A DNA stretch of 6,539 bases from a virus (Duplodnaviria; Heunggongvirae; Uroviricota; Caudoviricetes): IMG/VR virus record IMGVR_UViG_2690316002_000006, positions 1 through 6,539 of that record. One strand, given 5' to 3'. Each line of letters opens with the position of its first letter. Position 1 is the stretch's first letter. Positions 1 to 6,539 of the stretch are shown here, in pieces. The position numbers and the translations under genes are program-made. The notes below the pieces were generated by a model. That model had not been told where the DNA came from, ran no database searches, and saw nothing but the letters and a program-made list of their open reading frames with translations.

Positions 1-245
1 TTGATATGGCGAACACCGGTCTGCGCATCGTAGGAGCCAAACAGGGCCGCCACCAGGTCAAACACCCACGGTGCACAGGACTCCCCGAATGTCGGGCTAC
101 CCGGTGCATCCACAATCCGCAGTTGTTTAAAAATCGCCAGTGCATGTGCAGCCTGGTCCGGATAAATCGGAGCCGGAATAATCGACAGCCCCTTTTTCAG
201 GCGCTCTGCCCAGTCCGGACATGCCGTGCTCCATACAGGTATCAT
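1..245 (-). CDS. Phage terminase large subunit, N-terminal part (gene continues past the window start)
   Basis: Minus-strand frame open from ATG at 245 to the window edge; translation MIPVWSTACPDWAERLKKGLSIIPAPIYPDQAAHALAIFKQLRIVDAPGSPTFGESCAPWVFDLVAALFG... looks like a terminase large-subunit N-terminus. ATG overlaps the upstream stop as ATGA (245..242) and a GAGGAA Shine-Dalgarno sits 5 nt upstream. Missing from the ORF track only because it has no stop inside the window. Confidence 0.75.
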   Translation of the reverse strand, partial: MIPVWSTACPDWAERLKKGLSIIPAPIYPDQAAHALAIFKQLRIVDAPGSPTFGESCAPWVFDLVAALFGSYDAQTGVRHI

Positions 246-805
246 CCGCTTTCCTCATTCTGGTTATTCACCACCAGTCGGGGAGGTGGTGGCACCGCAA
301 AACGGTTAGCCGCTTTTTTCGCGGCATCACCTTTTGCCGATTTTTTACCGGCATCGCCTTTTTTATGGTGTGTGAACTGCGCCAGTCGCCAGGCCGCATC
401 CAGTGCCAGTTTCGGGTCAATTATCAGGTTTTCCACCAGGATCTGCCCCATAGCTTTCACCGGATCGGGAAGACCATCCTCCATATATTCAATACCATGA
501 GATATCACCGCGGGCGGAGGCATCTCCGGATTTTTTTCGTCCGGCTGTGGTATTGCAGCCACCTCACGGCGACGGGGTTTATCCTCCTGCTCTGATTTTT
601 TCTGCCGGTAAACAGGAACCTCATCCACCTCCACCGTTTCGCACTGTTTACGGGCTATAAACGCGAGCACCTCCGGATCTTTTGCCAGCTGCGAGCCTTT
701 AACCCTGGCGGTCTTCGCCGAATAACCGGCGGCAATGGCTGACGCTGTTTTGTTTTTCCCGGACATGAGCGCCAGCGCAAATTTTCGTTTTTGCGTTGTC
801 AGCAC
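242..805 (-). CDS. Phage terminase small subunit (Terminase_2-like)
   Basis: 187-aa ORF; N-terminus LTTQKRKFALALMSGKNKTASAIAAGYSAKTARVKGSQLAKDPEVLAFI matches the LT.KQ..F......N.T.AAI.AGYS.KTA pattern of Terminase_2 small subunits. GTG start at 805 follows GGGAGGAGG; lies immediately upstream of the large subunit. Confidence 0.85.
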   Translation of the reverse strand: MLTTQKRKFALALMSGKNKTASAIAAGYSAKTARVKGSQLAKDPEVLAFIARKQCETVEVDEVPVYRQKKSEQEDKPRRREVAAIPQPDEKNPEMPPPAVISHGIEYMEDGLPDPVKAMGQILVENLIIDPKLALDAAWRLAQFTHHKKGDAGKKSAKGDAAKKAANRFAVPPPPRLVVNNQNEESG

Positions 806-1094
806 AGCCTCCTCCCGGGTCCATAACGCACTCAGCCGGGTATGGTTCAGCCCATTTTTCCCGGCGTCTCATGCCGCAAATGTTAACTGCTGCCTGGTTA
901 ACATTTGCTGAAAAAGCCAGTTAACATTTTTTTCGCACAACAAACTGAATAATAAAGATAAAAACCGAAAAAATGCCCGGGCAGCCAGTTAACATGTTAA
1001 CTGGCCTGAAACAGGAATTTTTTCTCTGCATGAGACGGGGGGCGGTGTCCGGAGCGATCGTTTTTTACGCCGAATGATACCCCCCCCGGTCGGG
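806..1094. other. Putative cos region: cosB-like terminase-binding repeats, an A-tract bend and a GC-rich candidate cosN between the HNH gene and the small terminase gene
   Basis: 289-bp non-coding gap in the position cos occupies in HK97-like phages (HNH gene - cos - terS). Repeat / A-tract / repeat layout parallels lambda cosB (R3-I1-R2-R1). G-run 1037..1042 and C-run 1080..1087 flank a roughly 40-bp core. Inference only. Confidence 0.4.
876..1005. repeat. Cluster of five GTTAACAT / ATGTTAAC octamers, including a perfect 22-bp palindrome (984..1005) and a 12-bp inverted pair (876..887 / 897..908)
   Basis: Read directly: GTTAACAT at 897, 920, 988 and its reverse complement at 880, 994; GCCAGTTAACATGTTAACTGGC is its own reverse complement; GCAAATGTTAAC and GTTAACATTTGC are reverse complements 9 bp apart. 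An A-tract block (about 941..975) separates the sub-clusters. Confidence 0.8.
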
Positions 1095-1460
1095 TTACAG
1101 TCCGATGATGTCGTCCGCTCTGCCACTACCTCCGGACACCTCCGGCAGCGTCGGGTCCGGCATACCACCCGCCGCTTCACGAGCAGACTTTTGTCGATGG
1201 CATTCGGTACAGAGCGTCCAGAGATTCGTCTCCTCATTACCACCACCGAACTGAAGTGCAATTCGGTGATCGAGTTCACTATCACAGAGGTCAACCACAC
1301 GACCACAGAGACAGCACTGCCCGGCATCCCTCAGCCAGATATGACGCTTGAGGGAAACCCGGGCACTGCCACTGACACGACGCTGTTCCCCCTTCAGAAT
1401 ATTCACCCGTCGGGTATTCAGTGTTTTGATTCTGCTCTGGAGTGTACGAAGCTCAGCCAT
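1095..1460 (-). CDS. HNH endonuclease (phage packaging-associated)
   Basis: 121-aa ORF with an HNH-type motif: CCLCGRVVD...ELDHRIALQFGGGNEETNLWTLCTECHRQK (Cys pairs flanking a His-containing core). ATG start at 1460; sits directly upstream of the cos-like region and terminase genes. Confidence 0.85.
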   Translation of the reverse strand: MAELRTLQSRIKTLNTRRVNILKGEQRRVSGSARVSLKRHIWLRDAGQCCLCGRVVDLCDSELDHRIALQFGGGNEETNLWTLCTECHRQKSAREAAGGMPDPTLPEVSGGSGRADDIIGL

Positions 1461-1501
1461 GTAAAATCCCCGTCATATAACTTGTCACCAGAGGAAAGAA
1501 A

Positions 1502-1687
1502 ATGTCATCGAAAAACCGGACCCGCAGAACCACAACCCGCAATATCCGTTTCCCCAATCACATGATTGAACAGATCAACATCGCCCTTGAGCATAAAGGG
1601 TCCGGTAACTTTTCAGCGTGGGTTATTGAAGCCTGCAGAAGAAGGCTGTCAACAGAGCGTTCGGGTATGAATTACATAATTAAGTAA
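1502..1687 (+). CDS. Small ribbon-helix-helix-like protein (resembles YlcI/YnfO-type small prophage proteins)
   Basis: 61-aa ORF with a strong Shine-Dalgarno (GAGGAAAG, 5 nt before ATG). Basic N-terminus followed by NIRFPNHMIEQINIALEHKG...FSAWVIEACRRRL, consistent with a strand-helix-helix DNA-binding fold. The only convincing plus-strand gene in the window. Family name is from memory. Confidence 0.65.
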   Translation: MSSKNRTRRTTTRNIRFPNHMIEQINIALEHKGSGNFSAWVIEACRRRLSTERSGMNYIIK

Positions 1688-1816
1688 CATGGTGTTCACA
1701 GAACACACAGTTACCGGACACATCAGTTTTCCATTCGTCCCCCGGCAGTACAGGCTTCCCGTCTGACGGGATAGCCTGAAAAAACACAGAAAATTATTTG
1801 TTATAATTAATATAAC

Positions 1817-1957
1817 TTACTCAAAAAAAAGCGACGAGAAAATCAGCATCAACGAGCAATAAGCGCCAATACGTGATAACAAATGGCAGCCATATTTATC
1901 TGCAGTATAAGCAATGGACAGGATAACCACACCAGAAACCGTCAGCATAAAATCCAT
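1817..1957 (-). CDS. Candidate 46-aa hydrophobic micro-protein (below the ORF-track size cut-off)
   Basis: Manual translation: MDFMLTVSGVVILSIAYTADKYGCHLLSRIGAYCSLMLIFSSLFFE, with two hydrophobic segments. ATG at 1957 preceded by GGGGAAG 5 nt upstream. Lies in an AT-rich stretch; could be a chance ORF. Confidence 0.25.
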   Translation of the reverse strand: MDFMLTVSGVVILSIAYTADKYGCHLLSRIGAYCSLMLIFSSLFFE

Positions 1958-2313
1958 TTGAACTTCCCCGGACAAAATCGACTCATCTAAAGATTTACAG
2001 CTCTTTTTATTATCAATATGTTAAAAGTAAAATAAACAGATGTTCAATAATACGAATACAAAAACGTGCTGAAAATCAATGAATCCATTTCTGTGTTATC
2101 AATTAATAGTGATAAACATCCGGCTTCTTCCACCATCGCACCGGACCAGCGACCATGAGGGGACAACGCCGCGCTCCGTTAACGCGGTAAACCCCGGTGT
2201 GTATCGTTTTTGATTATCCCCGCACACTCGCGCAGAGGATTCTCCCGGTCGGGCTGCGGTCTCTGTTAATGCAGGAATACGGCGACAATACCGCGCATGA
2301 ATAATAAGGTCGC

Positions 2314-2538
2314 TCAACACACTGGCTGTAATGCAGCGGATACCATGCGGCATTTAGCGGCATTCATCGTACACTCAACGGTTAGCTCTTCATTCGTGGC
2401 ATTCACCTGAAAGGTCCTGGAGTGTAATTGCGTACATTTACCACTGAACGAACCTTCAACAAGAACACGACCACGCTGCAAAATACGGAACGGAATTGTT
2501 CCCTGAAAAGGCTTTACGGTTACCAATAATTTCTTCAT
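2314..2538 (-). CDS. Hypothetical 74-aa protein with four cysteines, immediately downstream of Rz
   Basis: ATG at 2538 preceded by GGAGA with 4-nt spacing, only 24 bp after the Rz stop. Translation MKKLLVTVKPFQGTIPFRILQRGRVLVEGSFSGKCTQLHSRTFQVNATNEELTVECTMNAAKCRMVSAALQPVC. The ORF-track version (2314..2556) starts at an upstream TTG; the ATG is preferred. No family recognised. Confidence 0.55.
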   Translation of the reverse strand: MKKLLVTVKPFQGTIPFRILQRGRVLVEGSFSGKCTQLHSRTFQVNATNEELTVECTMNAAKCRMVSAALQPVC

Positions 2539-2561
2539 GCATTCTCCGAATAACAAAAATA

Positions 2562-3020
2562 CTAGTTAATACACTGAGTGCGGATATATTCCTGAAGCAT
2601 TCTCAATGCTGCCTGGTCGCTGATGATTCCGTCTCTGATACCGAGAACGTTTCGTCCAGCAACCGGAGAGAGTTCGACGGCGGCATCATTGCCCACGCCG
2701 GAGGTGCCGGTGGCTTCACGCACGGTACCGGGGCAGGTGGCGTTGATCCGCAGGCGCTTACGACCAGCGGCAACATCAGCACGCAGAGTTTCATTTTCAG
2801 CTCTCGCATCGGCTAATTCCCTCGAGTATTTTGCATCGAGCGCAGCAACATCGCGCTGGCGCACCTGCATATCAGTAATGGTTGCGTTTGCCAGCTCCAG
2901 CTCTCTGGCTTTTTTATCGCGCTGCGCTTTGTAGGTGATGACGTTATCGCGGTAATGATTCAGCCCCAGACTAAGCGCACCACAGACCACCAGCAGAATA
3001 ACGGTAAACGCGGAAAGCAT
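2562..3020 (-). CDS. Rz: i-spanin Rz
   Basis: From internal ATG at 3020: MLSAFTVILLVVCGALSLGLNHYRDNVITYKAQRDKKARELELANATITDMQVRQRDVAALDAKY... closely parallels lambda Rz (N-terminal TM anchor, NHYRDN.ITYKAQRDK, MQ.RQRDVAALDAKY, C-terminal QCI/R). The ORF-track start at TTG 3128 adds 36 implausible residues. Confidence 0.85.
   Translation of the reverse strand: MLSAFTVILLVVCGALSLGLNHYRDNVITYKAQRDKKARELELANATITDMQVRQRDVAALDAKYSRELADARAENETLRADVAAGRKRLRINATCPGTVREATGTSGVGNDAAVELSPVAGRNVLGIRDGIISDQAALRMLQEYIRTQCIN
2603..2809 (-). CDS. Rz1: o-spanin Rz1, a lipoprotein embedded in the +1 frame of Rz
   Basis: MRELKMKLCVLMLPLVVSAC followed by a proline-rich stretch (GSTPPAPVPCVKPPAPPAWAMMPP): lipobox V-S-A-C and Pro-rich periplasmic domain as in lambda Rz1 (MLKLKMMLCVMMLPLVVVGC...). 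Lies entirely inside Rz. The true start could be the second Met (2794). Confidence 0.8.
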   Translation of the reverse strand: MRELKMKLCVLMLPLVVSACGSTPPAPVPCVKPPAPPAWAMMPPSNSLRLLDETFSVSETESSATRQH

Positions 3021-3257
3021 TCGGTTTATGCTCACCCCACCAGCCCTGCCGAAGTCAACGCCATCCAGGTTATGGAAAGAAAAAGAACAACCAGCATTAG
3101 TGAAAATGAAATACCGACGATTACACAAAGGCCCTTCGCCAGCATTATGAGTTTGTCTGACATCTTTACCCCTTAATAGCAGTAATTAACCGGGCAACCA
3201 CCCATAAAAACGGAATCAGCCAGACCAGCAAAAATTTCCAGTCCGTTTTTATCATCT

Positions 3258-3953
3258 TCATGCTGCGGTAGCTCTCCATGCAGCAAGCAGACCAGCAATC
3301 CACTGAACACCTTTTGGGGTGAATTTAACCTGCGTAAAAGCATGACCATTGCCCGCCTCGCCCGTTTTCACGCTAAACCGCCCCGCATCCAGGTGATGCG
3401 AGTAAGGCGTCATTTTTCCAGCGAGGCGATACATTATTCCGTTCTCCAACAAAAACAGCCGGAAATCGGTTTCTTTGATACCGAGTAACTTAGCAACTTC
3501 CCGGAATCCCATCAGACCAGATGCTTCAACATAGTTATCAACAAATTCAGCCTTCGGCGCTGCTATTGCCAGTTGATTTTCCAGCACTGCTTTCTGTTCA
3601 GCCAGTTTTGCCGCAAATCGCAACGCCTCAGGTAAAGTCCGGGGGATCTGAATACCATGCATCGCTTTGAGTCTTGCCAGCACAGAACGACGAACGGCCT
3701 TTGACTCCCTCATGCCAACGAGCATCATCTGGTCAAAATCCAGATCATAGTATGCCGTTCTTGTCTGGTTATTGTTTAACCGGAATTTTTTTCCGGTTCC
3801 ATCAAGCTCTAGCTCATCCTCAATTTTTGCAAGAAACTTACGCGGTTCATGAGGGACTTCTCCGGCTTCTGCCCGGGCTGGATTAATAATGTTATTCAGA
3901 AAATCCAGACTACTCATGGATATTTCATGATCGATAGAAATCATCTCTTTCAT
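3258..3953 (-). CDS. Antirepressor-like protein with a C-terminal KilAC-type domain
   Basis: 231-aa ORF, ATG at 3953 with AAGGAA Shine-Dalgarno. C-terminal region FREVAKLLGIKETDFRLFLLENGIMYRLAGKMTPYSHHLDAGRFSVKTGEAGNGHAFTQVKFTPKGVQWIAGLL matches the KilAC signature. N-terminal domain not confidently assigned. Confidence 0.65.
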   Translation of the reverse strand: MKEMISIDHEISMSSLDFLNNIINPARAEAGEVPHEPRKFLAKIEDELELDGTGKKFRLNNNQTRTAYYDLDFDQMMLVGMRESKAVRRSVLARLKAMHGIQIPRTLPEALRFAAKLAEQKAVLENQLAIAAPKAEFVDNYVEASGLMGFREVAKLLGIKETDFRLFLLENGIMYRLAGKMTPYSHHLDAGRFSVKTGEAGNGHAFTQVKFTPKGVQWIAGLLAAWRATAA

Positions 3954-4085
3954 GGTTGATTCCTTTTAGTGATGAACCCTGCGCACAGGAATAACCAGCC
4001 CAAAGAGGGTTAACCAGACCACTGCCGGTTATCCACCAGGGCTCATCCTGAAAGGTTCTTTGGTTTATTTACGCTTGTGCGAAGC

Positions 4086-4117
4086 ACAGAAATGACAAAG
4101 GCACCATTACGGTGCCT
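4086..4117 (-). terminator. Candidate intrinsic terminator downstream of the endolysin gene
   Basis: Minus-strand RNA: AGGCACC-GUAAU-GGUGCCU (7-bp stem, 5-nt loop; plus 4099..4117) followed by UUUGUCAUUUCUG. About 110 nt after the endolysin stop. Confidence 0.4.
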
Positions 4118-4226
4118 CTGCGTGAAATAATCTGCCTAACTTTATTCACTTACATTTTGCCAGTTCGCAGGATTTCGTGTTATCCGCCCGCGCTGGCCAA
4201 CGTCATTTTTCAGCAAAATATTCTGC

Positions 4227-4760
4227 TTATCTGTCGATTCCCCAGCACGCCAGAGCGCTCTCCTGGTCACGACGGGATACCTGACCATAACAGTTATTTG
4301 AGCGAATACGGCAGTCTCTGCCACCGTCCTTAATCCACCAGCGAATCGCTTCGCAGGCACCTTTTCGATCTCCTGCATTAATTCGTTTATAAAACGTCGA
4401 CGGGAAACACTTACCTGGGCCAATGTTGTAAGGACAGAATGACGCAATACCCGCTTTCTGGGGTTCAGTCAGTGGCACTTTGATGTTTTTCGCCACCCAT
4501 GCCAGCGCCTTATCACGCTCAATGGCGTTAACCCGGTCGCATTTTTCCTTCGACAACTTCATGCCCGGAACGACAGGTTTACCATCCACCAGGATGGCAC
4601 CGCGGCAGATGGTCCAGATACCCGCGCCATCACGGTATGCCGTGGTGTGGTTACCTTCCTTTTCATCCAGAAACTGGTCGAGGATTTCAGGCGCAGGCGC
4701 ACCTGCGGCAATCAGCGCCAGAACGGCAGCCGACAGGCCGTATTTGATTTTGGTGTTCAT
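4227..4760 (-). CDS. SAR endolysin (T4-lysozyme-type muramidase with signal-anchor-release N-terminus)
   Basis: 177 aa; N-terminal Gly/Ala-rich weakly hydrophobic segment YGLSAAVLALIAAGAPAP; catalytic spacing E35-x8-D44-x5-T50 (EGNHTTAYRDGAGIWT) as in T4 lysozyme and phage 21 R. Strongly resembles E. coli prophage lysozymes such as RrrQ (from memory). Confidence 0.85.
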   Translation of the reverse strand: MNTKIKYGLSAAVLALIAAGAPAPEILDQFLDEKEGNHTTAYRDGAGIWTICRGAILVDGKPVVPGMKLSKEKCDRVNAIERDKALAWVAKNIKVPLTEPQKAGIASFCPYNIGPGKCFPSTFYKRINAGDRKGACEAIRWWIKDGGRDCRIRSNNCYGQVSRRDQESALACWGIDR

Positions 4761-4810
4761 GGATATTTATCAGGGTTTATCGATTTCAAATCCCTGGATA
4801 TGTTAAGTCT

Positions 4811-5155
4811 TCAGGCCAGCGGTGGAGTCTTCAGAGAACCAGTAATTATTCCCGGTAGTTTTCCTCTGTAGGTTATCAACACATCCTGCGCCTCTAAAAT
4901 GATGGGCCGCTTTTCCGGCAACGGACCATCCCCTTCACATAACCCGGCAGCAACATCCATGAAAAACTGCTTCGCCTGCTTTTTCGCCTCCGCTTCGTAA
5001 AACTCCAGCGTGGCACCTTCAGTACGGTCAAGACTAATCGCCACATTTGGCAACAACAGTGACGGATACCCACCAATTTCCAGTGCCACAGTAACAGTAA
5101 TCTTATCCGGGTAATTATTTATCCCTTTAACAACCAGTTCGTATTTTTTCTTCAT
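4811..5155 (-). CDS. Hypothetical 114-aa protein inserted between holin and endolysin
   Basis: ATG at 5155 lies 4 nt after the holin stop, with GGGGAGAG Shine-Dalgarno inside the holin 3' end. Soluble-looking, no signal peptide or TM segment. Same position as ydfR in the K-12 Qin prophage (from memory); function unknown. Confidence 0.6.
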   Translation of the reverse strand: MKKKYELVVKGINNYPDKITVTVALEIGGYPSLLLPNVAISLDRTEGATLEFYEAEAKKQAKQFFMDVAAGLCEGDGPLPEKRPIILEAQDVLITYRGKLPGIITGSLKTPPLA

Positions 5156-5159
5156 CGCT

Positions 5160-5366
5160 TTACTCTCCCCGCGCCGCCTTACGCTTATCTTCTTTAATCT
5201 TGAAATAAAGGTTAGTCAGATACGTCAGCAGGCCAAACAGCAGACTCCCCAGCACACCGATTGCCACCCACTGGGACGGAGAGACTTTGTCCAGCAGCTG
5301 CAGTAACCAGTATCCCGTCCCCACCGCTGACGTGGTGTATGACACACCCGTTGTGATTTTTTCCAT
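5160..5366 (-). CDS. Phage-21-type pinholin (class II holin)
   Basis: From ATG at 5366: [68 protein letters not shown], near-collinear with S21/EssQ (two TM segments, charged C-terminus ...KAARGE). The ORF-track version (to 5435, GTG start) adds 23 residues of doubtful reality. Confidence 0.8.
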
Positions 5367-5621
5367 CTGATGTATGTCTCCGTCACCGCCGACAGAAAAT
5401 GAAAGTAAAGGAAAACAAAAAGCCGCCAGTGTCACCCACTGACGGCCAACTCCGGGAGCCGTGATTATGGCATTCAGGCTCTGCTAAAAATGCCAGATAA
5501 CATTCCGACCAACCCCTGATTCAGGTTATAAATGACACAATATCTTGACAACATCCGTCACTGTCTGTCAGAAAATGTACTGCCAAATATAAGTATCATG
5601 TGAAGTACATCTACCCGTTTT

Positions 5622-5660
5622 AGCCAGCGTCCTTCAGAGTGGGCGCTGGCTTTTTTTATT
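5622..5660 (+). terminator. Plus-strand intrinsic terminator abutting the 3' end of the upstream minus-strand gene
   Basis: AGCCAGCGUCC (5622..5632) - 8-nt loop - GGGCGCUGGCU (5641..5651), an 11-bp stem with one G-U pair, followed by TTTTTT(A)TT on the plus strand. On the minus strand the hairpin is followed by AAAACGGG, so it is not a minus-strand terminator. Confidence 0.5.
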
Positions 5661-6195
5661 ATGCTGCCGGTGCATTTATCTCCAGCATCAGACTTTCTAT
5701 CTCAACGCCATACGCTGCATTTTTTGTAACATCCGTCAGCGTCAGCGCATTCAGTCCCAGTGTCAGACTGTCTTTTATAACCTGGAATGCCGGGCCAGCC
5801 ACTCCATTCAGTTTCGGAGTAACCGTGGCACTGCCGGCGGTGAACACCAGCTCCAGCGTCTGCCAGTCGTTACCGTAATCGCCGAACTCCCCCAGCTTCG
5901 TGTTTCCGGCTTTCCTGTGATGCATCAGATTCACTCTGCCGTCAGTGGTCTGAGTGAAGTACGACATCAGGAACGGATTACCGGTACCCGTCATCGCCAC
6001 ACCATCAGGAACGGGAGCATCCGTATACAGATAAATCCCCAGCCCGAACTGATTGTTGGTCAGTGCGCCTGACAGGCGGAACTTACAGGTCAGTCTGCCG
6101 CCCTGTGTCAGCAGGGTAATTGCGTCATCCACCGGATGCGTCAGGGACCAGGTTTTATTGCTCTGCTTGGTGATCTTAAATACACCATCTGACAA
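5659..6195 (-). CDS. 3' part of a cargo ORF upstream of the lysis cassette (possibly lectin-like; hypothetical)
   Basis: Protein-like translation (...GWSIKDGGIQLSDGVFKITKQSNKTWSLTHPVDD...GVEIESLMLEINAPAA) in a frame that stays open upstream to a stop at 6250..6252 with no ATG or GTG in between; the ORF-track start is a TTG. Probably the C-terminal portion of a larger, frame-interrupted gene. Confidence 0.5.
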   Translation of the reverse strand: MSDGVFKITKQSNKTWSLTHPVDDAITLLTQGGRLTCKFRLSGALTNNQFGLGIYLYTDAPVPDGVAMTGTGNPFLMSYFTQTTDGRVNLMHHRKAGNTKLGEFGDYGNDWQTLELVFTAGSATVTPKLNGVAGPAFQVIKDSLTLGLNALTLTDVTKNAAYGVEIESLMLEINAPAA

Positions 6196-6539
6196 CTGAA
6201 TTCCGCCATCCTTAATGCTCCAGCCCTGCGCAGCAGAATTTCCGGTGCCTTACCACTGATGAAGGCTGAGGTGCGCCCGGCTGCGTTCAGAATAGCGGTT
6301 GCCAGACGATCCGGAATAATGCTCCTGCGCGCCCATGAACTGAAATGTGTCGGGCGGTTTGATGATACCTGGTTTCCATTCGTTCTCGATGCCGCACCGT
6401 AATATCCTGATGCCGGAATATCCGGATCTTCTGCCGGCGCGTTAGTGGCGGTATTGACGCCGTTACCGTCTGTCATGAAGGGCACAAAATAAACGCCCTC
6501 ACTCTCCCTGTTTTTATACCCGCCGTACACGGTGTCGTA
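6141..6539 (-). CDS. Upstream portion of the same cargo gene, in a different frame (open to the window edge)
   Basis: Frame open from the window edge: DTVYGGYKNRESEGVYFVPFMTDGNGVNTATNAPAEDPDIPASGYYGAASRTNGNQV...AILNAAGRTSAFISGK... The last roughly 30 codons (R-rich, overlapping the downstream frame) look non-native, consistent with a frame switch near 6250. Confidence 0.4.
   Translation of the reverse strand, partial: YDTVYGGYKNRESEGVYFVPFMTDGNGVNTATNAPAEDPDIPASGYYGAASRTNGNQVSSNRPTHFSSWARRSIIPDRLATAILNAAGRTSAFISGKAPEILLRRAGALRMAEFSCQMVYLRSPSRAIKPGP

Follow-up and report, generated by a model that had tools for sequence, protein, structure and literature searches.

The G1P proteins, the small terminases (TerS) of phages SPP1 and SF6, bind repeated boxes in intrinsically bent DNA, and an adjacent HNH gene is, as Kala et al. 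reportedly argued in 2014, a hallmark of cohesive-end (cos) packaging modules of the HK97 type. In HK97 itself the genes follow the order HNH (gp74), cos, terS (gp1) and terL (gp2, the large terminase TerL); gp74 stimulates cos cleavage (PMC11331095, PMC9410871), and TerS recognizes one 15-base-pair (bp) site through its central channel (PMC11331095), in a cos site that carries no repeat array. The cos site of phage lambda comprises cosQ, cosN and cosB, the last with the layout R3-I1-R2-R1 (PMC6092414). These systems are compared here with a stretch of viral DNA of 6,539 nucleotides (nt), positions 1 to 6,539 of the IMG/VR record IMGVR_UViG_2690316002_000006 (hereafter the window), whose packaging genes lie on the minus strand in the same order as those of HK97: HNH, a gap of 289 nt (806-1094), terS and terL. 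A sequence-only reading had taken this gap, in front of a Terminase_2/HNH module, for a cos site built in the manner of lambda cosB. The gap proves to be a genuine cos site of the HK97 type that bears a repeat array resembling lambda cosB, and its repeats are most likely docking sites for the small terminase, as judged from the comparison of related loci.

The Cut Site

Positions within cos are numbered from the cut in gene direction, i.e., along the minus strand of the window. The cut has been published for a near-identical Shiga toxin 1 (Stx1) phage, Lys8385Vzw (MT225100; Zhang et al. 2021): in the passages of that report that deal with genome ends, PhageTerm analysis of virion reads yields a cos phage whose cohesive ends are 3', its cos sequence being CGCCCCCCCT, which is the last 10 nt of MT225100 and the end of the genome (PMC7946995). 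The same passages report the 10-nt end only and describe no repeats, core or TerS sites (PMC7946995). The record ends ...GGACACCGCCCCCCCT and starts CTCACGCAGAGAAAAAATTCC..., a break that corresponds to the junction of 1035 and 1034 on the minus strand of the window; the end found by PhageTerm thus maps inside the gap, in agreement with the sequence-only reading. TerS of Lys8385Vzw is 90.9% identical to that of the window, its HNH-terS gap is near-identical and holds the same five GTTAACAT copies, and its end differs by one base from the window equivalent, CGCCCCCCGT. By transfer from this phage, the top-strand cut at cosN is predicted between 1035 and 1034. The cut site is therefore already in print; the array, the core and the way it is expanded, and the three classes of specificity described below were not found in the open-access literature text that was searched. 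A GenBank note on cohesive ends in phi330 was set aside, the record having been opened inside terS and the paper reporting no end mapping, as was a paper on a Serratia phage (PMC7556043), a different phage with a 5'-cos.

Two GC-rich runs had been proposed together as the nicking site, and only one of them has kept that role. The G-run GACGGGGGG at 1034-1042 (G's at 1037-1042) overlaps the predicted cosN and may be regarded as the nick site because the published Lys8385Vzw end maps to window 1044..1035. The C-run had been given as 1081..1091, where C7GGTC is indeed found; the run itself has 8 C, at 1080-1087, and forms a conserved element that precedes the predicted cut by 46-53 nt. The features of the gap are as follows.

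1080..1087, minus strand: C8 run (G8 in gene orientation), -53..-46 from the cut
1014..1087, minus strand: conserved cos core, -53..+21 from the cut, about 75 nt
1035..1044, minus strand: cosN, predicted 10-nt 3' cohesive end CGCCCCCCGT, by homology to Lys8385Vzw
1014..1027, minus strand: invariant element AGAGAAAAAATTCC, +8..+21, with an A6 tract at +12..+17, present in all relatives of any TerS class
984..1005 (arms 984-994 and 995-1005), no strand: perfect 22-bp palindrome GCCAGTTAACATGTTAACTGGC, two inverted copies, +30..+51 from the cut
938..975, minus strand: T-rich spacer (T6, T5 and others) with conserved ATTCAGTTTGTTG at 938-950, +60..+97
915..930, plus strand: single repeat copy AGCCAGTTAACATTTT, at +108 from the cut
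876..908 (876-887 and 897-908, 12 bp, 100% complementary), no strand: inverted pair GCAAATGTTAAC-N9-GTTAACATTTGC, +131..+155
860..874, plus strand: left arm of an inverted repeat with the cosN flank (9 nt, 866-874 and 1028-1036)
880-887 (minus), 897-904 (plus), 920-927 (plus), 988-995 (plus) and 994-1001 (minus): the GTTAACAT copies, from a sequence search

The Repeat Array

The octamer GTTAACAT occurs five times in the window, and all five copies lie within the gap. Chance would provide 0.27 copies on average, and none of 200 dinucleotide-preserving shuffles reached five; likewise, de novo k-mer counting returned ATGTTAAC as the top 8-mer of the gap region, with five copies vs at most 2 in 300 shuffles. 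The repeats are thus present and non-random in their occurrence, and the octamers, the palindrome, the inverted pair, the single copy and the A-rich block at about 941-975 all stand where the sequence-only reading had located them. Aligned by eye, the five copies share a motif roughly 12 nt long, C-[AT]-G-GTTAACAT-[TG]-T. The palindrome at 984..1005 is proposed as the primary TerS site, and the T-rich spacer, whose tracts at +62-67 and +71-75 show a phase coherence of 0.83 (from two tracts only), is probably a bend or a site for an accessory protein.

A 9-bp inverted repeat had also been described as bracketing the array. It is present at 866-874 and 1028-1036, and extends to 15 nt at 87% (860-874 and 1028-1042), but it is not conserved in divergent relatives: its left arm at 860-874 is invariant in the close family, partial in the related locus L176 and absent from L005, L087 and L177. 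About 0.15 such 9-nt repeats are expected in 289 nt by our own estimate, so that it is not rare by chance. This 9-15-nt repeat is lineage-specific, and its significance is doubtful.

The Conserved Core and Its Expansion in E. coli

Relatives of the locus were collected from genome contigs with an alignment query, as a query with the single TerS protein returned none; 20 further loci came from Enterobacter, Atlantibacter, Kluyvera, Kosakonia, Phytobacter, Citrobacter, Buttiauxella, Erwinia, Pantoea, Serratia and Rouxiella. The loci align ungapped from -58 to +24, and 24 Enterobacterales loci of more than 10 genera share the core consensus gGGGGGGtat.....gg.gtaaac..CgatcgC.c.gGAcACCgCgCCCcCt|CTCAcgCacAGAAAAaATtCCc. 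In the Salmonella phage FSL SP-016, the HNH-terS gap of 106 nt is 78% identical to window 988-1089 even though its TerS is only 49% identical to that of the window. In the 24 loci a run of G7-8 is separated from the cut by an identical ungapped distance. Because the C-run of the window is fixed at -53..-46 and the layout of HK97 matches, it is regarded as a conserved upstream cos element and not as a second nick site; by its position it could be cosQ-like or serve to position the nucleases. In the PPompW prophages of O157 strains, ISEc20 (IS110 family) is inserted in the C-run, at about window 1083 (L094 2875-4333). Since the sequence beyond ISEc20 jumps to transfer RNA genes and the Q gene, the HNH gene and lysis region are missing from these prophages, which are probably unable to cut or package their own DNA.

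The HK97 cos site, with which the sequence-only reading had suggested a comparison, does match in layout. Its overhang is 10 nt long and 3', like that predicted for the window; a G9 run lies about 42-45 nt upstream of its cut, to be compared with the C-run, and a T7 tract follows the cut. HK97 and the window family share a GAC(A)CCGCC motif before the cut and an A/T tract after it; in HK97 GACCGCCGCCAAA / GACCGCCGCC stands before the cut, and terS begins at +50, preceded by GTTGACAT (L092 1-80, L093 415-733). The G-run would seem to belong generally to cos sites of the HK97 type. The window system is nevertheless not a full HK97 module, because its TerS differs, and neither gp1 nor the HK97 HNH protein shows BLASTP similarity to the proteins of the window family.

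In most relatives, hereafter called short-type, terS starts at +40, vs +230 in the window lineage (long-type), which indicates that about 190 nt were added in the E. coli lineage. This expansion carries the T-rich block and three extra repeat copies. In short-type relatives the place corresponding to the palindrome of the window is taken by a near-palindrome, GTAAACATGTTAAC (GTAAAC-ATG-TTAAC), which overlaps the terS start codon and encodes Met-Leu-Thr. In all long-type loci the true terS start has been recoded from ATG TTA ACA to GTG/ATG CTG ACR, which removes GTTAAC at the start; in the window the recoded start is at 797-805, and the ancestral-looking ATGTTAAC survives in the palindrome (993-1001). 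The short-type loci L006-L024 have one repeat copy on each side of the cut (-34..-27 and +33..+46), about 72 nt apart and changing together: most loci combine GTAAACAT with GTAAACATG, and L022-L024 combine GTCAACG with GTTAACGTG. The window has the A-tract GTAAAAAACG (1061-1070) in place of the upstream copy.

The Repeat Motif Tracks the Putative TerS Recognition Helix

The gap is bounded by HNH and small terminase genes, as the sequence-only reading had it, and the packaging module in the window consists of the following genes.

1095..1460, minus strand: HNH endonuclease gene, 121 amino acids (aa), first of the packaging module (PF01844, E 7.5e-07; phrog_589, E 8e-45)
242..805, minus strand: small terminase gene terS, 187 aa, with a GTG start and a GGAGG Shine-Dalgarno sequence (PF03592 Terminase_2; phrog_641)
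1..245, minus strand: 5' end of the large terminase gene, whose ATG overlaps the terS stop codon (phrog_7622, E 1e-57)

An HNH gene directly upstream of terS-terL, a feature of HK97-type modules, is therefore found here as well. Only 81 N-terminal residues of TerL are encoded in the window, and these have no Pfam match; over the N-terminus they share 82-91% identity with relatives of 553 aa in which PF03354 (ATPase) and PF20441 (nuclease), the domains of an HK97-type large terminase, are present. TerL of SP-016 is a distant homologue of that of HK97 (22.5% identity, E 1e-10). The window and SP-016 are 82% identical in the TerL N-terminus, 70% in HNH and 49% in TerS; for the E. coli variant locus L005 the respective values are 91, 88 and 76%. 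These identities indicate that TerS is the fast-evolving partner while the core stays constant, and that the invariant core tracks the conserved nucleases and the repeats track TerS.

The sole Pfam match of TerS is to PF03592 (residues 2-57, 35.6 bits for a cut-off of 26.1), and a profile of TerS relatives matches the DNA-binding domains of SF6/SPP1 G1P in the PDB (4zc3, 2cmp, 3zqp). AlphaFold models residues 1-55 with a predicted local distance difference test (pLDDT) score above 92, with helices at 4-14, 19-25, 33-41 and 44-55; the C-terminal part is not confidently modelled. The top Foldseek matches are 4zc3, the SF6 G1P domain (TM score 0.84, root-mean-square deviation 1.6 Å), and 2cmp (TM score 0.82), in keeping with homology to the N-terminal helix-turn-helix (HTH) domain of G1P. 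The variable residues 33, 36, 39 and 40 sit on helix 33-41, which may be inferred, by comparison with G1P, to be the recognition helix.

The repeats differ among long-type loci together with this helix. In L005 every copy is altered at equivalent positions, to TATAAACATGTTTATA, AATGTTTATACC and AATGTTTACAGG...GGTAAACATT; in L087 the GTTAACAT core is retained and the flanks are altered, as in its palindrome GGTGGTTAACATGTTAACCACC.

Equivalent of the palindrome (984..1005): TATAAACATGTTTATA in L005, GGTGGTTAACATGTTAACCACC in L087
Equivalent of the single copy (915..930): AAATGTTTATACC in L005, AAATGTTAACCACC in L087
Equivalent of the inverted pair (876..908): AATGTTTACAGGGCAGCGGTAAACATT in L005, GTTAACCAGGCAGCGGTTAACATT in L087 and L176

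When the loci are sorted by residues 34-40 of their TerS proteins, the motifs fall into classes.

ARVKGSQ/R: GTTAAC, 5-6 copies (window, L176, L087)
ARCKGSQ: [GA]TAAAC, 5 copies (L005; partial in L086 and L175)
ARVKGWQ: GTTACA, 6 copies in L177 and 2 copies in L088
ARVKGCQ: GTTACA, 1 copy (L090)

The repeat sequence thus changes together with TerS residues 36 and 39. In every long-type locus, de novo counting places the class motif first among the k-mers, above shuffles, and for P0010, P0012 and P0054 it was predicted from the protein sequences before the loci were fetched; all three predictions held. Comparison of the loci shows that the core is conserved and that the repeats co-vary with the putative recognition helix. 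The proposal that TerS would recognize the small terminase code in these repeats gains from this co-variation.

Comparison with lambda and with the Headful Phages

Like lambda cos, the gap has a multi-site array of mixed orientation between the nick site and terS, with an A/T-rich spacer inside it, and a conserved element upstream of the nick site. In contrast to the window, with its 3' overhang (taken from its relative) and its Terminase_2 TerS, lambda has a 12-nt 5' overhang, a TerS of the Nu1 family and a consensus site for integration host factor (IHF), and has no HNH partner. As its TerS family is different, its overhang polarity opposite and no IHF site was found in it, the window system does not belong to the lambda cos family. 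What remains of the proposed likeness to cosB is the repeat array with its A/T spacer; the IHF consensus is missing, and the 3' overhang and HNH partner are of HK97 type. By analogy, the system may work as if a cosB array of the lambda kind had been set on an HK97-type cosN, to be read by an HTH TerS of the G1P type. Phages SPP1 and SF6, from which the homologous HTH domain is known, differ from the window in using headful packaging and in lacking an HNH partner.

A Model for Cutting at the Gap

There are good grounds for reading the gap as a cos site that belongs to an HNH-assisted packaging module of the HK97 type, in which the HTH domain of TerS reads the repeats. The N-terminal HTH of TerS would bind the CAGTTAACAT repeats at the palindrome (+30..+51), the single copy (+108) and the inverted pair (+131..+155), and the T-rich spacer (+60..+97) between these sites would bend the DNA or bind an accessory protein. 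Once bound, TerS would place TerL and HNH on the invariant core (-53..+21), where the nucleases would nick in a staggered manner and leave the 10-nt 3' overhang CGCCCCCCGT (window 1035-1044); packaging would then start at the cut and proceed in the direction of terS, terL and the head genes. In this scheme the binding of TerS, the bending of the DNA and the way in which TerL and HNH share the work are what we infer, and the role of HNH is modelled on gp74.

Alternative Readings of the Gap

Several observations weigh against this model. The mapping of ends in the family comes from a single PhageTerm analysis, of one relative, and a search for further phage records ending at the predicted cut found none besides Lys8385Vzw. 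No match to the IHF consensus WATCAANNNNTTR at up to 1 mismatch exists within 806-1094; the only IHF candidate is ATTCAKNNTGTTR at 938-950, which has 2 mismatches from the IHF core and is kept in four long-type loci. The phasing of T-tracts across loci is moderate (R 0.37-0.83) and, being drawn from just 2-4 tracts, is no more than suggestive of an intrinsic bend. Among the 50 unique sequences of the close family the whole gap is nearly invariant, and repeats and spacers are therefore not separable there. The conservation of GTAAACATGTTAAC in the short types could reflect coding or translational constraint, since it overlaps the ribosome-binding site and start of terS.

To these may be added the position of the A6 element, from which the best of the competing explanations takes its force, namely that TerS reads this invariant element (+8..+21, 1014-1027) as HK97 does, the GTTAACAT repeats being accessory, either sites for host or other phage proteins or dispensable enhancers. 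The minimal TerS site of HK97 (+15..+29) contains an A-tract and follows directly after the cut (PMC11331095). The invariant element occupies that very position here and could thus be the primary TerS site; AGAAAAAATYCC is conserved in every relative, and the short-type relatives have just 40 nt from cut to terS. However, TerS of HK97 has no detectable sequence similarity to that of the window and binds DNA via its central channel (PMC11331095), whereas the TerS of the window has an HTH domain of the G1P type. An invariant element, moreover, cannot account for repeats that change along with the recognition helix, and its invariance better fits recognition by the conserved TerL and HNH. The lack of similarity, the use of a channel and not an HTH, and the unexplained co-variation lead us to consider this explanation rather unlikely, and to prefer the reading of the repeats as TerS sites.

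It is considerably less probable that the repeats are non-functional relics of a duplicated terS 5' end (ATG TTA AC, Met-Leu-Thr), left by the insertion of about 190 nt between the ancestral and present start codons. Such an origin would agree with ATGTTAAC being the terS start in short-type relatives, and with the palindrome of the window opening an open reading frame (ORF) of 24 codons that begins MLT (995..921, minus strand). Yet this ORF is not conserved in the variants, nor are short ORFs in general conserved between them, and the palindromes are perfect. All copies have changed in concert in the three specificity classes while keeping their number, orientation and spacing, and the same layout recurs in satellite islands with a different motif.

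That the palindromes are operators or terminators of the late operon, unrelated to packaging, is harder still to believe. A weak promoter-like match at 898-927 (plus strand) and a weak terminator-like hairpin of 5 bp at 980-965 (minus strand) would speak for it, but the count of terminator-like structures matches that of shuffles, and conservation of the hairpin does not extend to L005 or L087; promoter-like matches are in modest excess (2 found vs a shuffle mean of 0.5), and the one that falls within the gap is not on the strand of the genes but on the other. The repeat site co-varies with TerS and not with any regulator, and a scan of 600-1600 against Rfam at E values up to 1 gave no match.

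Headful (pac) packaging in the manner of SPP1 and SF6, with the repeats as pacL/pacR-like boxes, would suit a Terminase_2 TerS whose N-terminal domain matches SF6 G1P, but is the least credible reading of all, given that the near-identical Lys8385Vzw was assigned by PhageTerm to the cos type, with 3' ends, in the published passages on its termini (PMC7946995), that TerL is probably of HK97 type (PF03354/PF20441 in relatives, and distant homology of SP-016 TerL to that of HK97), and that the adjoining HNH gene is a trait of HK97-type cos modules.

Satellite Islands with the Same Core

Satellites that carry the cos of their helper or a TerS of their own are an established concept, as set out in sections of two earlier papers (PMC6092414; PMC5052747), and E. 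coli phage-inducible chromosomal islands (PICIs) that encode TerS have been described without an identified helper (PMC6092414). The same cos core is carried by E. coli PICI-like satellite islands (L178 3446-11944, equal to L088/L089, and L177 850-1974). They encode their own Terminase_2 TerS with a changed helix (KGWQL) and have a matching private repeat, AAAAGTTACAC, in two or six copies; the overhang of L178/L088, CGCCCCCCGT, is identical to that of the window. The L178 island has the order integrase, small ORFs, AAA_25 primase/helicase, cos, terS and a 307-aa capsid-like protein, and contains neither HNH nor terL. These islands can be likened to the cos-type satellites already known, SaPIbov5 with phi12 and the E. 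coli PICIs; they differ from them, as far as sequence tells, in keeping a helper-type cosN together with their own TerS and a matching, different motif. Because no helper is known for the TerS-encoding E. coli PICIs, the Stx-type siphophages are candidate helpers.

Distribution and the Rest of the Window

The window represents the late region of an E. coli prophage, a lambdoid siphophage of the Shiga-toxin type. The gap with its flanks is 94-98% identical to more than 90 records of Stx1a-, Stx2a- and Stx2c-converting lambdoid siphophages, among them BP-4795, 2851, YYZ-2008 and Pankowvirus. Of 5426 complete E. coli genomes, 1284 have the gap, at 3108 places in total (6 of them on plasmids) and with up to 7 copies per genome, which indicates that many co-resident prophages have a single cos and TerS specificity in common.

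Upstream of the HNH gene, on the opposite strand, lies an ORF with a DUF3950 domain, and the rest of the window (2562-5435, minus strand) looks like a lambdoid lysis and late region. Apart from the first of the following features, which has a Pfam match, their description comes from the ORF list and translations.

1502-1687, plus strand: ORF with DUF3950 (PF13132, E 8e-20), 61 aa, immediately upstream of HNH; in a relative it carries the annotation YlcI/YnfO family
2562-3128, minus strand: Rz-like ORF, 188 aa
2603-2809, minus strand: 68-aa ORF with a lipoprotein-like signal, embedded in the Rz-like ORF
3258-3953, minus strand: 231-aa ORF
4227-4760, minus strand: lysozyme-like ORF, 177 aa
5160-5435, minus strand: holin-like ORF, 91 aa

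Implications for Packaging Specificity

Elements of this kind are well known, and the value of the present one lies in annotation and in the experimental handle that it offers, not in a new principle. The gap is present in many Stx1, Stx2a and Stx2c prophages, and its cosN and likely TerS sites fix the ends of their virion genomes; knowledge of both helps to predict cross-packaging among co-resident prophages and satellites. The three natural motif classes, which are 1-2 helix residues apart, make a simple, testable system for the specificity of HTH-type small terminases.

A wider proposal is offered tentatively, as one that is somewhat more likely to fail than to stand: that residues 36 and 39 of the TerS helix (V/S, C/S or V/W) specify GTTAAC, [GA]TAAAC or GTTACA while cosN and the nucleases stay constant, that satellites exploit this arrangement, and that the expansion in E. 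coli is the product of an arms race. If so, the satellites would pair a helper-type cosN with their own TerS and private motif, and thereby redirect the TerL and HNH of Stx siphophages, and the expansion of about 190 nt would sharpen self-recognition among up to 7 co-resident prophages that share one cosN.

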